Virus record (IMG/VR): IMGVR_UViG_3300025769_000069
Reading direction: 5' to 3' (one strand)
From: a virus
Length of the DNA: 64,000 nucleotides
Shown here: in pieces, positions 41,480 through 60,840 of the stretch
Layout: every line of letters begins with the position of its first letter
How positions within the stretch are numbered: position 1 is the first letter of the stretch
Position numbers and translations under genes: made by a program
The notes under the pieces: model-generated
Database searches by the model: none
What the model was told of the DNA's origin: nothing
What the model saw: the letters and a program-made list of their open reading frames with translations, nothing else

Positions 41480-41950
41480 ATGAATAAGAAATATGTCCAT
41501 ATAGCGAGCGGGTTTTTAACAATGGCAGGCTTAACAATACTTGGCCTTACGGCAATGATGTCATTGCCTGAGGTCGATCCAAAACAACATGAATGTATGG
41601 CACTTAACATTTATCACGAAGCTCGTGGCGAACGTTGGGAAGGCCAAATTGCTGTAGCACATGTAACAATGAATAGAGTTAACCATCAAAATTGGCCAAA
41701 TTCTATTTGTGATGTAGTATATGAATCAAAACAATTTAGTTGGACTCATATGATTAAAGATCATACTCCAACTGAAGAAAAAGCTTGGAAAGAAGCAAAA
41801 GTTATTGCACGTGATGTTATGATTGGCAATACTGAAGATCCTACAAAAGGTGCTGAGTTTTATCATGCTAATTATGTAAATCCGTGGTGGGCAAAGGAAT
41901 ATAAACTTACCAAAGTAATTGGTAATCATTTATTTTACAGTTTAGACTAA
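41480..41950 (+). CDS. Cell wall hydrolase (SleB/Hydrolase_2), N-terminal membrane anchor
   Basis: CMALNIYHEARGE, VTMNRV, QFSW, IGNHLFY. Confidence 0.92.
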   Translation: MNKKYVHIASGFLTMAGLTILGLTAMMSLPEVDPKQHECMALNIYHEARGERWEGQIAVAHVTMNRVNHQNWPNSICDVVYESKQFSWTHMIKDHTPTEEKAWKEAKVIARDVMIGNTEDPTKGAEFYHANYVNPWWAKEYKLTKVIGNHLFYSLD

Positions 41951-42788: not shown

Positions 42789-43148
42789 ATGAAACTCGCA
42801 GTAATCGCAACAGCAGCAACTCTTTTGGTTGCAACACAAGCATCAGCAATCGATCTTGGCAATGGTATGACAGTAGGTGGCGAAGTAGATATGAACTACA
42901 CCACTGGTACAGAACTTTGGGCACTTGAAGCAACTCCTGAAGTTGGCATGGGCTTGATGGGTGCACAAGTAACGGTAGGATCTACCTTTGATCTAATGAA
43001 CCTTAATGGTGATGATGTATTTAAAGGTTTGGACTTCTCAGCTGAGTATGCAGTTGGCACTACAGGTCTGACTGCATATGGTGAGGTTGCCACTGACTCA
43101 GATTTTGAGTTTGGTGACTTTAAAGTAGGCGCTAAATTCGCGTTCTAA
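42789..43148 (+). CDS. Small outer-membrane beta-barrel / porin-like protein
   Basis: Signal peptide ending QASA, amphipathic strands, C-terminal GAKFAF. Confidence 0.7.
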   Translation: MKLAVIATAATLLVATQASAIDLGNGMTVGGEVDMNYTTGTELWALEATPEVGMGLMGAQVTVGSTFDLMNLNGDDVFKGLDFSAEYAVGTTGLTAYGEVATDSDFEFGDFKVGAKFAF

Positions 43149-43191
43149 TTAATCATATATACTATATAGGGTCACTACTTAATAAGTGCGC

Positions 43192-43219
43192 GAGGGGCCA
43201 TGGTTAGCCCCTCTTTCTT
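43192..43219 (+). terminator. Rho-independent terminator
   Basis: GAGGGGC-N8-GCCCCTC-TTTCTT. Confidence 0.65.
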
Positions 43220-43236
43220 ATGGAAAGGACTATAAT

Positions 43237-43581
43237 ATGAAAAAAATATTATTAGCTTTAGGGTTAATATCTAGTCCTGTGTATGCGGATACGCTTCAGA
43301 TTAATATTCCCTGTGATCCTGCACCCGTTGTAATGGGGATAATGGCACAATATAGGAATGCCTTGCTTCTTCAAGGAATGGGGACTATTAAATTAAAAGA
43401 TGGGAAAACTGTTACTTCTGCTACTCAGATATTTATAAATCAAGATACTGGGACGTTAGCTGTATTAATATCTTTCCCAAATGGGGATAACTCTCCTATG
43501 TCTTGTCTAGTTATTGCAGGTGATAAATGGGAGCCATATGGAGGCGGTCAGCCTTGGGATAAAAAGAAAGAAGATCTGTAA
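43237..43581 (+). CDS. Exported hypothetical protein
   Basis: Signal peptide MKKILLALGLISSPVYA; two Cys. Confidence 0.7.
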   Translation: MKKILLALGLISSPVYADTLQINIPCDPAPVVMGIMAQYRNALLLQGMGTIKLKDGKTVTSATQIFINQDTGTLAVLISFPNGDNSPMSCLVIAGDKWEPYGGGQPWDKKKEDL

Positions 43582-43769: not shown

Positions 43770-43777
43770 TATAAATA
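43770..43777 (+). promoter_or_regulatory. T4-type late promoter
   Basis: TATAAATA before the exported-protein operon. Confidence 0.8.
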
Positions 43778-43797
43778 GAGTTGAAATGGAGTATAAT

Positions 43798-44373
43798 ATG
43801 ATAGATAAGTTATTTGGAATTTTAGTATTAATAATTTGTGTATTTTTTGCACAAACAAGTTTTGCTCAAGATGCAGTTGAATGCCCTGATGGATATGTTT
43901 GTACATTATCGGGCACAGACTCTAATATTACTACTAATGGTCAGATGACCACAACAATTGAGCAACCACCCCCATCAGCAATTGCTCCGCAATTTAGTGC
44001 AGGTAACAATTCTGACTTGTGTACTATTGGTGCATCTGCCTCTGTGCAAACACAAATCCTAGGTATTTCTGCCGGTGGTACATACACTGAAGAAAACTGT
44101 AAACGATTAAAGAATGCAAAGGTTCTTTATGATATGGGAATGAAAGTAGCTGCGGTATCTACAATGTGTCAAGATGAAAATGTATTTAAAGCAATGATGA
44201 ACGCCGGCACACCTTGCCCTTATAATGGTTTAATTGGTGAAGCTGCTAAACTTGGTTGGGAAAGCCATGTTGAAGAAACTGAAGAAGAACTTAATTTGAT
44301 GGGACCTATAGATGCAGAAAAAGTTGCTCCTGTTATTGGCGCTGGTATGCTGGCCTGGTTACTCTTACTCTGA
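43798..44373 (+). CDS. Exported Cys-rich protein with hydrophobic C-terminus
   Basis: Signal peptide, PPPSAIAP, AGTPCP, six Cys after the signal. Confidence 0.7.
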   Translation: MIDKLFGILVLIICVFFAQTSFAQDAVECPDGYVCTLSGTDSNITTNGQMTTTIEQPPPSAIAPQFSAGNNSDLCTIGASASVQTQILGISAGGTYTEENCKRLKNAKVLYDMGMKVAAVSTMCQDENVFKAMMNAGTPCPYNGLIGEAAKLGWESHVEETEEELNLMGPIDAEKVAPVIGAGMLAWLLLL

Positions 44374-45217
44374 GAGTATAGCGCCATACTTTGGATATAC
44401 AGGCAATGCAATTACAGACCAGTCTTTAGCTTGGTCTATGCCTAGCGTATTGCCTAATCCACCTGGATTAGATATTCAAAATGTAATATATAGCTACAAA
44501 ATTCAAAAAGAAACTGGTGAGTGGGTTACAGTTCATGTGCAGAATGAAAATGCAAATGGTACTGGATATATTTTTAGAGAAACTGATGAGTGGAAACCTG
44601 GGTCTATAGCTGGTACAGGAATTAGTAAAGCTGTTCCTGTAGGAAACTTGCCAAGAGAAGCTTGGGGTGACGGCAGCATTGATGTTGACGGTAATGGCTC
44701 AGTCTATGATGCGAGTATCGTTTATACATACAGAGTTACGCCATGCTATGATCCTCAATTTGATCCTAACTGTCCTGGTTATGTTGTACAGATCCCTGAT
44801 ATTCCTGAAGTTGATTATGAAGTGTATGATGTGTTTGATGATGAGAATGTTGACATGGAACGCAATAAAACAATTGAGCAGGATGAGATAAATAGAGAAC
44901 AGGCCAGAGAAGATGAGGAAGAAGAGGAAGAAGAGCGTAAAAGAAAATACAGACTTGAAAAACTTTTGACCTCTCTACAAGCGGCTCAATTAGCAAATGA
45001 AAATTTAGTTATTCGTCAAATGAATGCTGCGGCAAATAGTGAGATAAATAGGTTATATAAGTCAAAAGAAATACCAGGTAAAGAATATAGTGATACAGTG
45101 ACTTTAGTAGATTCGAAATTACCTGATTCGAATAGAGGCTTACGTAATGGACTAGCACAGCAACTGCTGCATAATCAAATGGTAGAAATGCAGTATAGCT
45201 TAACAGACGAAAAATAA
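44312..45217 (+). CDS. Exported protein
   Basis: Signal peptide, beta-rich N-half, CYDPQFDPNCPGY, acidic coiled coil. Confidence 0.7.
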   Translation: MQKKLLLLLALVCWPGYSYSESIAPYFGYTGNAITDQSLAWSMPSVLPNPPGLDIQNVIYSYKIQKETGEWVTVHVQNENANGTGYIFRETDEWKPGSIAGTGISKAVPVGNLPREAWGDGSIDVDGNGSVYDASIVYTYRVTPCYDPQFDPNCPGYVVQIPDIPEVDYEVYDVFDDENVDMERNKTIEQDEINREQAREDEEEEEEERKRKYRLEKLLTSLQAAQLANENLVIRQMNAAANSEINRLYKSKEIPGKEYSDTVTLVDSKLPDSNRGLRNGLAQQLLHNQMVEMQYSLTDEK

Positions 45218-45232
45218 ACTAAGGAGACTTAA

Positions 45233-45748
45233 ATGTCTAATATTAAAACATGCTTGGTTGCTCTGTCTATCACGACTATGGCAAGCACAGGTAGTGGACA
45301 AAGTAATGATACACCAATTAATGGTACCGTGCAATCTCGATGTGTAATTCAAACCGATACTCCGGGCACATATGGTAACCCTAATGCATATGAATTAAGT
45401 ACAAGAGCAAATGCTGGCGGCGATAATGCTGTTATTCGAGTAGATGTTACACTGGCCAATTCTTATTATGTTAATATTACAGCACCATCTGAATTTGCAA
45501 GCAGCCCCACATTACCAGATGTAGTAACATGGACTGGTGATACAACTGTAAAAACATTATCTGATGCGACCGGAATGAGTGCATATGAATCAAGCAAACA
45601 AGAGCTAGGGATGACAGATAAGTACGATCTAACTGCTACTGGTTCAACGTGGTTTGAAACAGAATCAGTTGCTACATTAGGTGGCTCTCGAGCTTTTCCA
45701 GGAGGTAATTATACGGCATTAGTAGAAGCTGAGTGCATCGCTAAGTAA
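45233..45748 (+). CDS. Exported fimbrial-subunit-like protein
   Basis: Signal peptide, INGTVQSRC near the N-terminus, GGNYTALV near the C-terminus, Thr/Ala-rich. Confidence 0.5.
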   Translation: MSNIKTCLVALSITTMASTGSGQSNDTPINGTVQSRCVIQTDTPGTYGNPNAYELSTRANAGGDNAVIRVDVTLANSYYVNITAPSEFASSPTLPDVVTWTGDTTVKTLSDATGMSAYESSKQELGMTDKYDLTATGSTWFETESVATLGGSRAFPGGNYTALVEAECIAK

Positions 45749-45757
45749 GGAATAATT

Positions 45758-46147
45758 ATGTTACGTTATGTTTTGTTATTAGCTACTATATTAGTAGGTA
45801 TGAAAGCGCATGCTCATGAAATGGTTCCTACATACCCTAAGTTGAATCCATCTTATATTAACGGGCTACAGTCAACTACTGTTACTATTTTTAATAAAAG
45901 AGAAGATGTTGAATATTACGAAATTGGTGTATTCACTAAAGACTGGAATCCTATTCCATTTGTTACTGCGTATAAAGTTATTCCAGTACCTTATTTAAGC
46001 ACCGTTAGTGTTGATTTATTTATCAGAGATAAAGATAAATTGATTGTGACTTACATATGTTCAAAATCTAAACTTCGTAAATCTTATGAAACACAAACAA
46101 TTATATCATCTAGGATATGCTCTAAAGTGAAAAGGCTGGGAGAATGA
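45758..46147 (+). CDS. Exported Ig-fold / PapD-N-like protein
   Basis: Signal peptide ending AHA; PT, TVTIFN, YEIGV beta pattern. Confidence 0.45.
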   Translation: MLRYVLLLATILVGMKAHAHEMVPTYPKLNPSYINGLQSTTVTIFNKREDVEYYEIGVFTKDWNPIPFVTAYKVIPVPYLSTVSVDLFIRDKDKLIVTYICSKSKLRKSYETQTIISSRICSKVKRLGE

Positions 46148-46566
46148 AAAAACATTTTATAATATTAGCTATGTTATTACCTACATATACTTTAGCAGAC
46201 AATAGTGGTATTGGATTATCCTTACCTGGAGCATCTCAATCATATGGACAAGACAGTATTCGAGCAGGAGACTTAGATTGTAAGAACTCTATTGGAGGCG
46301 CTACAACTTTTGAGTTTGGAGTGACAGGGGTTATTGATAATTATAGCAGCCCATTTGGCGAACCGGATTATGGAAATGAAGAGAAGGATGTAGGGTTATA
46401 TGCAAGAATAGTTATACCACTTGATAAGCCTAAGGAAAGAATTAACTGTAATAGCCTATACCAATTAGAATTAAGAAAAAAACGATTAGAAGTTTTAAAA
46501 TTGCAACAAGAATTAGAAGCGTTAAGGCGTTTAAACGAAGCTGGCGGCGTTGAGTTTGAGAACTAG
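46144..46566 (+). CDS. Exported protein with C-terminal coiled coil
   Basis: Signal peptide; LYARIVIPL, NCNSLYQLEL. Confidence 0.65.
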   Translation: MKKHFIILAMLLPTYTLADNSGIGLSLPGASQSYGQDSIRAGDLDCKNSIGGATTFEFGVTGVIDNYSSPFGEPDYGNEEKDVGLYARIVIPLDKPKERINCNSLYQLELRKKRLEVLKLQQELEALRRLNEAGGVEFEN

Positions 46567-46576
46567 GAGTTAATAG

Positions 46577-47155
46577 ATGGCTGAATTTGAATTCGCTGGA
46601 ACCACGTTTAGAGGTGGTAAAATGTTTGTTGTGCTCACGGCACTATCAACATTAGGTGGTGGTGCATGGGGCGGCTTTGAGTTCTACAATGATTATAGAA
46701 ATATGAAAGAGATTGTAGAGAACATCGACGTAGATGCTATTGCAGCTGAGAACGAAAAAGTTATTCTTAAAATGGAAGAGAACCTAGCTCGTATCAATGA
46801 AGCTATTGAGTACACCCGTGATATTAAAACTGGTCTTAGAGATGATATACTTGGCATTGAAAAGCAAGTGGATCGCACAGAGGATAAGCTACGCGAAAGT
46901 GAAGAAAAGACTAGAGAAATTGTTCAAAACGCAGAAGAGCGTTTTGAGAATAAACGAGATGCATTGCAAAATGATTACGATGAAAAAGCAAATAGTCTAA
47001 GAAACTCGAACAATACTCGCATGAATGATCTGGAAACTAAAGTTGAGCGTGACCTTGAATCACTTCGAGCAACGATTGAAAGAGATATGAGAGAGCTTGA
47101 CACTCTATTGAGTGATAAATTACAGAGGGCACTAAACAATCCATTAGCGAACTAA
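46577..47155 (+). CDS. Membrane-anchored coiled-coil protein
   Basis: N-terminal TM (LSTLGGGAWGGF), long coiled coil, ends ALNNPLAN. Confidence 0.7.
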   Translation: MAEFEFAGTTFRGGKMFVVLTALSTLGGGAWGGFEFYNDYRNMKEIVENIDVDAIAAENEKVILKMEENLARINEAIEYTRDIKTGLRDDILGIEKQVDRTEDKLRESEEKTREIVQNAEERFENKRDALQNDYDEKANSLRNSNNTRMNDLETKVERDLESLRATIERDMRELDTLLSDKLQRALNNPLAN

Positions 47156-59942: not shown

Positions 59943-60109
59943 CAAAAATTAAAGAAGAATCACCGGCAACTTCTATTGGAAACGCTTCAGTTTCTTTACC
60001 ACCAACAGCTAAATTTAATCCAAAGGTTGTAGTTGATCGCCGGCATAAAAAAGGTAAAACTGTTTTACTAAAAAGGTTCAGAAAGTATATGGACGATAAA
60101 AATGGCTAA
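59939..60109 (+). CDS. 56-aa peptide resembling the mature gp23 N-terminus (not in ORF track)
   Basis: MTKIKEESPATSIGNASV...; overlaps both neighbouring genes. Confidence 0.6.
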   Translation: MTKIKEESPATSIGNASVSLPPTAKFNPKVVVDRRHKKGKTVLLKRFRKYMDDKNG

Positions 60110-60551
60110 ATTATATTTGATGCTACTTTTAGTAAGTTTATTCAGCGGAGTTGGATATGCTGGATATTCTTATTATATGTGGTCTCAAGAAACAATTGGA
60201 ACTTTACGTGAAAATAATGTAAAGTTAAAGACAGCTGCAGAGACACTACAAAACACTGTAGAAAAAATGGCAGCTGATGCTAAAAAGAATGAAGAACTAA
60301 ATCGTAACTTGACTAAAAGATTGCAACAATCGCAAGAACACCTAGACAAATTAAGAGGTGTATTTGCTAAAATTGATTTGACTATGGAGGCATTAACAAA
60401 TGCACAAGGACTTGAAGACAGAGTTAACAACGCCGTTAACAAACTTATTGGGCGGATCCAAGATGAAACTACTCCTCCTAGCGATGAGCCCGCTTCTACT
60501 GACAGCGTGCGGGGTGAGGACGCCGGAGCCGGAAGTAGTAGTAACAACTGA
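60102..60551 (+). CDS. Inner-membrane spanin (Rz-like)
   Basis: N-terminal TM plus coiled coil; overlaps a lipoprotein gene. Confidence 0.75.
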   Translation: MAKLYLMLLLVSLFSGVGYAGYSYYMWSQETIGTLRENNVKLKTAAETLQNTVEKMAADAKKNEELNRNLTKRLQQSQEHLDKLRGVFAKIDLTMEALTNAQGLEDRVNNAVNKLIGRIQDETTPPSDEPASTDSVRGEDAGAGSSSNN

Positions 60552-60840
60552 ATACCAGGAACAAAATATTCCTATTCAAGAACGACCTAAAGCTGTAGAG
60601 TTTCCTCCAGTTGATTGGTATGTCATAACAGAAGAAAACCTTGAAGAAAAAATTCAAGAAATTAATTCAAAAACTGGTAATGTAGTTGTCTTTGCTATTA
60701 CACCAAAAGGTTATGAAAATCTTGCACTTGGTATTGCAGAATTGCGGCGCTATGTAAAAGATCAGCAAGCAATCATTGGATATTATGAAGAAGCTTTAAC
60801 TCCTACTGAGCCTACTCCATCCACTTCAGAAAATCAGTAG
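60463..60840 (+). CDS. Outer-membrane spanin lipoprotein (Rz1-like)
   Basis: MKLLLLAMSPLLLTAC lipobox; Pro-rich; YENLA..IAELRRY. Confidence 0.78.
   Translation: MKLLLLAMSPLLLTACGVRTPEPEVVVTTEYQEQNIPIQERPKAVEFPPVDWYVITEENLEEKIQEINSKTGNVVVFAITPKGYENLALGIAELRRYVKDQQAIIGYYEEALTPTEPTPSTSENQ

Follow-up and report, generated by a model that had tools for sequence, protein, structure and literature searches.

The stretch of DNA analysed here, called the window in the following, is a 64,000-nucleotide viral sequence (IMG/VR virus record IMGVR_UViG_3300025769_000069) which carries between positions 43770 and 47155 a block of six tightly packed genes, named g1 to g6. These six genes are a late-expressed composite envelope cassette and not a classical pilus operon. 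The cassette is real, very widespread and undescribed, and a literature search found no description of it. It is composed of two sub-modules, the trio g3-g4-g5 and the set g1/g2/g6, a division that is new here. The genes found around it suggest a connection with lysis rather than with a surface pilus. The features of the block are the following:

43770..43777, + strand: T4-type late-promoter-like motif TATAAATA, 21 nt 5' of the g1 ATG at 43798
43798..44373, + strand: g1, exported protein with a four-Cys core and a C-terminal hydrophobic tail
44312..45217, + strand: g2, exported protein of 301 aa, overlapping g1 by 62 nt
45233..45748, + strand: g3, exported beta-sandwich protein
45758..46147, + strand: g4, exported single Ig-like domain of the PapD N-domain/MSP type
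46144..46566, + strand: g5, small exported protein with a Cys-bracketed beta-hairpin and a charged coiled-coil helix, overlapping g4 by 4 nt
46577..47155, + strand: g6, bitopic inner-membrane coiled-coil protein

The source of the window is a marine T4-like myovirus with a G+C content of about 36%, which encodes terminase, tail sheath, portal, major head protein, a gp43-type polymerase and a DnaB-like helicase. No close relative of this phage is present among 50,697 deposited phage genomes. The motif TATAAATA occurs 17 times in the window compared to 8.7 expected occurrences, and 15 of the 17 copies are located on the + strand. Copies at 1646, 3888 and 9751 lie just 5' of the open reading frames (ORFs) for sheath and portal and of ORF 9784, respectively. 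The six + strand genes are separated by gaps of 9–15 nt or overlap by 4 and 62 nt. Signal-peptide-like N-termini are found in g1 to g5, and alignments of 47–53 homologues show an even number of invariant Cys in each of them (g1 C75/C101/C124/C140, g2 C145/C154, g3 C37/C168, g4 C101/C121, g5 C46/C102), as expected for periplasmic disulfides. A preliminary description of the window had listed one promoter, six packed genes, five of them with signal peptides and Cys pairs, and one coiled coil with a transmembrane (TM) segment, and all of these elements were recovered in the sequence. Gene 47157 begins only 2 nt 3' of g6 and may be co-transcribed; it is not co-conserved with the block, which corrects an earlier note.

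Similarity searches returned families of unknown function only: g1 matches phrog_20531, g3 phrog_25895 and g5 phrog_37374 in PHROGs. Searches of Pfam and NCBIfam with all six proteins gave no match except coiled-coil noise for g6, and sequence and profile searches of the PDB gave none for g1 to g5. Paralogy of g1 and g5 was considered and rejected, since hhalign of g1 versus g5 aligned the signal peptides only.

We collected related loci by scanning IMG/VR with g3, which yielded 75 viral loci, 54 of them distinct, and checked gene order by tblastn with the six cassette proteins and seven flanking proteins. Genes g1 to g5 are co-linear in 75 of the 75 viral loci with room for them. In most loci g6 follows g5, either directly or beyond an insertion of 1–2 kb. 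The order and the overlaps of 62 and 4 nt are kept across the 75 loci at identities down to about 35–45%; the g1/g2 overlap amounts to 62 nt in 47 of the 54 distinct loci and to 59 or 65 nt in the others. The motif TATAAATA is located at most 200 nt 5' of g1 in 39 of the 54. The genes flanking the cassette vary and are common to the closest relatives only. With g1 to g5 co-linear and the flanks variable, the block is co-conserved in related phages well beyond what chance would produce; the preliminary description had proposed gene-order conservation as a check. Two divergent T4-like contigs (L096 and L097) show the permuted order g1-g2-x-g6-g3-g4-g5, with all six genes still present.

A scan of genome contigs gave seven further loci, all of them in metagenome-assembled genomes (MAGs) with incoherent taxonomy. 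A bacterial origin of these loci was rejected and they were read as mis-binned phage contigs, because of the incoherent taxonomy and because one bin holds five copies. This bin, 'Rhodobacteraceae bacterium Water_Bin34' (G001; L079-L082, L099-L103), has the complete cassette on no fewer than five separate contigs and seems to have collected many contigs of T4-like phages. A g3-like match was absent in 400 genomes sampled from the class of Water_Bin34.

Outside the marine T4-like phages the two sub-modules are found apart. Vibrio T5-like phages carry the trio g3-g4-g5 alone, corresponding to gp077-079 of pVp-1 (hhalign 96% and 81%). A tblastn search of g3 against the 50,697 phage records gave no match, so the Vibrio phage homologues of g3 were found by profile only; homologues of g5 were found by tblastn in 50 Vibrio phage records, and also in the contig L093 and in Mesorhizobium. 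In the Vibrio T5-like phages the trio is located about 600 nt 5' of holin and endolysin and is preceded by two fibre-like genes (835 and 861 aa), the products of which have no signal peptides. In L093, a 52-kb phage contig, the trio lies directly 3' of genes for two multi-TM proteins, a Phage_lysozyme protein and an Rz-like gene with an embedded lipobox ORF, which together were read as a holin-lysozyme-Rz/Rz1 cassette.

A profile search of 400 sampled Pseudomonadota genomes detected the trio in 7. Five of these, all large genomes and Mesorhizobium sp. B2-4-15 among them, have a chromosomal four-gene operon g3a-g4-g5-g3b. In Mesorhizobium sp. B2-4-15 (L118 8968-10826; WP_141835683, WP_141835686, WP_141835688) the products are annotated as hypothetical proteins and the operon is surrounded by housekeeping genes, namely nth, an ada/ogt-like gene, ribokinase and amidase. 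In every setting where the trio was found, g3 and g4 are adjacent. The trio is a self-contained module of bacterial type. We also noticed a g3-like tandem pair adjoining ddl-ftsQAZ in a Pseudomonadota MAG (L094).

The second sub-module recurs in podophages. A g1-like gene, followed by a gene for a variable secreted protein of 260–610 aa and then by one for a g6-like protein of 107–193 aa, is present in seven pelagiphage and roseophage genomes: pelagiphages HTVC023P, 033P, 115P and 202P, Mosig, and roseophages CRP-207 and CRP-810. An uncultured podovirus record has g1-like and g6-like genes. The podophage g6-like proteins consist of a TM helix and a coiled coil, and 6 of the 7 end in NPL(A/G)x or NPL; that of the uncultured record ends in NPLSK. 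In HTVC023P the g6-like gene abuts a peptidase M15 endolysin gene and lies directly 5' of it, and in ctXG6705 and HTVC033P the g1/g6-like set is located within about 1 kb of a lysozyme. CRP-810 gp51, labelled 'lysozyme' (L086 4360-4782), and CRP-207 gp73, labelled 'putative lysozyme' (L108 3292-3873), are themselves g6-like TM/coiled-coil proteins ending in NPLGR and NPL, respectively, and the labels are probably misannotations. Such 'lysozyme' labels of g6-like proteins were not used as evidence, and neither were the 'OmpA family' (CRP-810 gp53) and 'tonB' labels nearby, which have no Pfam support.

The protein g1 has a very conserved four-Cys core of about 100 aa with 42 invariant alignment columns and a conserved end (...G.G.LALLLLL). 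From its sequence the C-terminal hydrophobic tail is predicted to be a type I membrane anchor. Long g1 forms contain N/T-rich repeats, and the g1 core occurs on its own in pelagiphages, roseophages and Ralstonia phage RSP15. The protein g2 is built from a beta-rich N-terminal domain closing with PCxDPQxDPxCPGY, an acidic linker and a conserved C-terminal helix (...LAQQLLH.QMV.MQY). It has no match in Pfam and PDB and no usable match in the ESM Atlas; its Cys motif is also found in P0013 and its C-terminal motif in HTVC115P gp53. Read in two frames, the 62 nt at 44312-44373 encode both the C-terminal anchor of g1 and the signal peptide of g2. In P0005 and P0013 g1 and g2 are fused in one reading frame, and there one hydrophobic segment would serve as anchor and internal signal peptide. 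The protein g6 starts with a short N-in segment and one Gly-rich N-terminal TM helix, followed by a periplasmic coiled coil whose length varies through block indels. Its C-terminus carries an invariant NPL motif (Q183, L186, N188-P189-L190), mostly in the form ...LQRALDNPLAN.

The topology of g6, an N-terminal TM helix followed by a periplasmic coiled coil, is that of an i-spanin, which is a match of topology only; no spanin PHROG was matched by g6. We compared the cassette with two-component spanins such as lambda Rz/Rz1 and T4 PseT.3/PseT.2. They share with it the N-in TM helix, the periplasmic coiled coil and a conserved C-terminal tip, and the cassette has a late motif and is repeatedly located near endolysin or holin genes. 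In contrast to these systems the cassette has no lipoprotein partner, and the phage has a separate canonical pair, 13 kb 3' of the cassette at 60102-60840, with overlapping genes:

60102-60551: i-spanin, TM helix and coiled coil, phrog_739
60463-60840: o-spanin, lipobox LTAC, phrog_812

A lipobox scan of the window ORFs detected only 60463-60840, with none in g1 to g5 and none embedded in g6. An o-spanin ORF is located 2–5 kb 3' of the cassette in 6 related loci. The idea that g1-g2-g6 is the spanin equivalent of the phage was downgraded once the canonical pair had been found in the window. A further candidate lysis gene is located 1.8 kb 5' of the cassette: 41480-41950 encodes a SleB-type cell-wall hydrolase (Pfam Hydrolase_2, E 2.6e-28) with an N-terminal Gly/Ala/Thr-rich, signal-anchor-like segment, and a copy of TATAAATA overlaps its start. 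Judged by this segment it is a candidate signal-arrest-release (SAR)-type endolysin. Close relatives have the SleB-type hydrolase as well, and in the retrieved flanks it recurs in 10 loci.

The spanin pair of the window and the presence of the trio in a bacterial chromosome, away from any phage genes, mean that the cassette cannot simply be a spanin and that the envelope function of the trio must be broader. The end of infection is nevertheless indicated by the late motif, by the i-spanin-like g6 and by the endolysin, holin and spanin genes that repeatedly lie nearby in phage lineages not related to each other. From what was observed (export signals, a conserved block with a late motif, the folds, the split phyletic distribution and lysis genes as recurrent neighbours) we propose, tentatively and with less than even confidence, that the cassette forms a periplasm-spanning envelope assembly which helps or tunes envelope breakdown or release around lysis. 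All six products would be located in or face the periplasm. The protein g4 probably holds g3 by beta-strand augmentation, using the free N-terminal strand or the C-terminus of g3. The protein g1 would act as a C-tail-anchored Cys-rich domain, g2 as a secreted protein with a C-terminal helix and g6 as an inner-membrane coiled coil with a conserved tip, a g1/g2/g6 set that is also found in podoviruses of SAR11 and roseobacters. Together g1 to g6 would most likely form the periplasm-spanning assembly at the end of infection, beside the ordinary endolysin and spanins.

Several points weigh against this proposal. With the canonical i-/o-spanin pair in the window and Rz-type spanins in L093 and pVp-1, a spanin-like role is not needed. 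The nearness of lysis genes could simply mean that accessory genes are tolerated in this region. The Mesorhizobium operon is situated amid housekeeping genes without lysis context, so the native function of the trio is not lysis as such. Six genes are also many for a lysis accessory, and the physical complex of their products is putative.

We next consider the proteins that gave rise to the pilus interpretation. The AlphaFold2 model of g4 (pLDDT 85) is a seven-strand Ig domain, and the mature protein of about 110 aa consists of this single domain. The top Foldseek matches are mostly N-domains of PapD, FaeE, DraB, Caf1M and SafB (E ~2-5e-3, TM-score 0.4-0.5). VIA gave Z values of 8.8 for FimC, 8.8 for SafB, 8.4 for YadV, 8.2 for FaeE, 7.8 for PapD and 7.7 for CsuC, with MSP domains at Z 8-9 beside the chaperone N-domains, which is a fold-level match only, in a middling Z range. 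The nearest named clusters by ESM features are all PapD_N (0.78-0.81), to be taken as a lead only. At the sequence level, all 53 members of the g4 family were without a match to PapD_N (PF00345) even when E values of up to 10 were allowed, and profile-profile comparison (hhalign) of the family with 30 PapD N-domains from the sampled genomes gave a probability of 1.2%, no better than signal-peptide controls. The small beta protein following g3 does resemble a PapD N-domain, as had been described, in fold (Foldseek and VIA) and without sequence kinship. A second domain (PapD_C) is absent, and relatives of at least 285 aa were not found, which is weak evidence.

Mature g4 begins with a His (HEM.PTYP, window 45815-45835, g4 residues 20-26) that is invariant in the 53 marine phage homologues and in L093, and that is absent from the Vibrio phage and Mesorhizobium homologues. 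A histidine-brace (copper) function of this residue was set aside, since a second invariant His is lacking and the His is absent from the latter homologues.

For g3, conserved positions cluster near the start (I29, G31, V33, S35, C37) and at the end (G158, Y160, C168). The AlphaFold2 model (pLDDT 85) shows a beta-sandwich from residue 37 onward. The N-terminal alternating strand (PINGTVQSRC, residues 24-36) is invariant and left unpaired in the monomer at pLDDT 57-77, and the C-terminus is fixed in length. The invariant pair C37/C168 ties the first and last strands, suggesting a closed sandwich rather than an open groove. Foldseek returned no match with E <1e-3, and CBM2 modules and chaperone-usher pilins were mixed at TM-scores of 0.3-0.46, the pilins at 0.34-0.46. 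Exhaustive structural alignment reached a best Z of 7.4. In a second structural look the CBM2 chitin- and xylan-binding modules (Z 6.1-6.9) were followed by MSCRAMM Ig domains and CanA (5.7), and no chaperone-usher pilin was present among the top 50 neighbours by Z. The ESM Atlas divides the g3 family among three clusters made up of viruses only (92, 407 and 333 members), the next neighbours being CBM_2 proteins. Pfam gave no consistent match for the g3 family (53 + 23 members), including Fimbrial PF00419, SCPU PF05229 and CBM_2, a lone SCPU match at E 1.5 being not significant, and hhalign of the family against 26 SCPU proteins from the sampled genomes yielded a probability of 0.5%, no better than signal-peptide controls.

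In structure g3 is closest to CBM2 modules, which align over their whole length of 87-100 aa and have, as g3, a Cys pair near both chain ends. In contrast, g3 has no Pfam CBM_2 match and is about 45 residues longer, and the Z values are within the range of chance fold resemblance. The preliminary description had recognized a fimbrial-subunit pattern in the 45233 protein (g3): the quoted motifs are present and conserved, while a pilin identity is not supported, with CBM2 as nearest neighbour and no Fimbrial or SCPU kinship. On the models g3 appears as a generic beta-sandwich, and a specifically pilin-like character is not supported.

How close does the cassette come to the chaperone-usher pathway? 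The resemblance comprises periplasmic proteins, the PapD N-domain/MSP-type Ig fold of g4, a Cys-paired beta-sandwich g3, encoded beside g4, in which the N-terminal strand is conserved and the C-terminus reads G.Y.A.V..C, and the bacterial operon g3a-g4-g5-g3b with two subunit paralogues. The differences are considerable. No usher is found in the window, where the only ORFs >700 aa are DNA polymerase and ribonucleotide reductase, which agrees with the earlier statement that no usher-sized gene is present. The usher family PF00577 had no match in the five bacterial genomes bearing the operon, with a positive E. coli control. Moreover, g4 is one domain and not a two-domain boomerang, neither sequence nor profile comparison links g3 and g4 to PapD_N, Fimbrial or SCPU, and the conserved partners g1, g2, g5 and g6 have no counterpart in the pathway. 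What remains of the pilus-type interpretation is a late, co-conserved, exported and usher-less cassette with the fold of g4; pilin identity, family membership and pilus building are not supported.

It is possible, if on the unlikely side, that the trio represents an undescribed usher-less assembly route of bacteria and phages, in which a single-domain PapD-like protein handles beta-sandwich subunits with g5 as membrane partner, and which in marine T4-like phages is coupled to the inner-membrane-anchored g1/g2/g6 as a late trans-periplasmic structure. The main rival to the lysis-related assembly is an usher-less fibre: g4 would cap g3, g3 would polymerise by donor-strand exchange through its N-terminal strand into a polymer in the periplasm or on the surface, and g5 would replace the usher as outer-membrane partner. 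We regard this as rather unlikely; it is compatible with an assembly acting at lysis, and the two are not mutually exclusive. The neighbours of g4 are dominated by chaperone N-domains, with which the ESM features agree, and the unpaired, invariant alternating strand and fixed-length C-terminus of g3 would suit such a fibre, as would the constant adjacency of g3 and g4 and the Mesorhizobium g3 paralogues flanking g4 and g5, comparable to major and minor pilus subunits. Donor-strand polymers without ushers do exist: in TasA fibres, Pyrodictium CanA cannulae and archaeal bundling pili, beta-sandwich subunits are joined via an N-terminal strand. CanA is among the neighbours of g3, although with Z 5.7, 135 residues aligned and a root-mean-square deviation of 5.7 the match is weak. 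However, these systems have no PapD-like partner, and polymerisation of g3 is putative. The lack of kinship to PapD_N, Fimbrial and SCPU, the better match of g3 to CBM2 with pilins outside the top 50, the Cys pair suggestive of a closed sandwich, and a g4 without second chaperone domain or longer relatives all argue against a fibre, and the system has no known way through the outer membrane.

Superinfection exclusion or receptor masking, with the exported proteins coating or blocking receptors and thereby protecting the cell or sparing progeny from debris, appears improbable. Export of the products and the CBM2-like fold of g3, a binding module, would be in line with it. In T5, llp follows the receptor-binding gene, an arrangement similar to that of the Vibrio T5-like trio behind the 835- and 861-aa fibre-like genes. 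Exclusion genes do not usually have a late promoter motif, though, and strong conservation of the cassette is seen in phages that differ in its flanks and presumably also in their receptors. The chromosomal operon of Mesorhizobium, which has no phage context, does not fit either.

Control of lysis timing, an option that the preliminary description had listed, is a similarly improbable alternative. Here g6 would be a class III-like holin or holin partner, and the exported proteins would bind its coiled coil as antiholin-like sensors, comparable to T4 T/RI. The N-in/C-out orientation of g6 with its single Gly-rich TM helix, the g6-like gene directly 5' of the endolysin gene in HTVC023P and the late promoter motif of the cassette speak for this possibility; yet similarity to T or RI is lacking, a coiled coil of variable length with a conserved tip resembles a spacer to a partner and not a globular sensor, and the trio is present without g6 in Vibrio phages and bacteria. 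That the six are unrelated accessory genes travelling together with no joint function is hardly credible. The two sub-modules are indeed distributed separately, but the strict order and both overlaps persist across the 75 loci in spite of their divergence, all six genes are kept under permuted order, and some contigs have g1 and g2 as a fusion.

Of the gene blocks of ocean T4-like phages that have no explanation, the cassette is one of the more widespread, and parts of it occur also in podophages of SAR11 and roseobacters, in T5-like phages of Vibrio and on Mesorhizobium chromosomes. If the cassette acts at lysis, a new component would be added to envelope disruption in hosts that dominate the ocean; if a PapD-like protein and its subunit assemble without an usher, they would represent a new branch of chaperone-assisted assembly. 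Culturable carriers allow direct testing, namely Mesorhizobium isolates, Vibrio phage pVp-1 and its relatives, and pelagiphages HTVC023P and HTVC033P.

Upstream of the block, two further small exported proteins are encoded. The first (42789-43148) has a signal peptide and ends in Phe as last residue, and the second (43237-43581) matches phrog_25396. A terminator-like hairpin is located between the two ORFs at 43192-43213. As these two genes (42789-43581) adjoin the block, about 4.4 kb of the window code here for exported proteins only.

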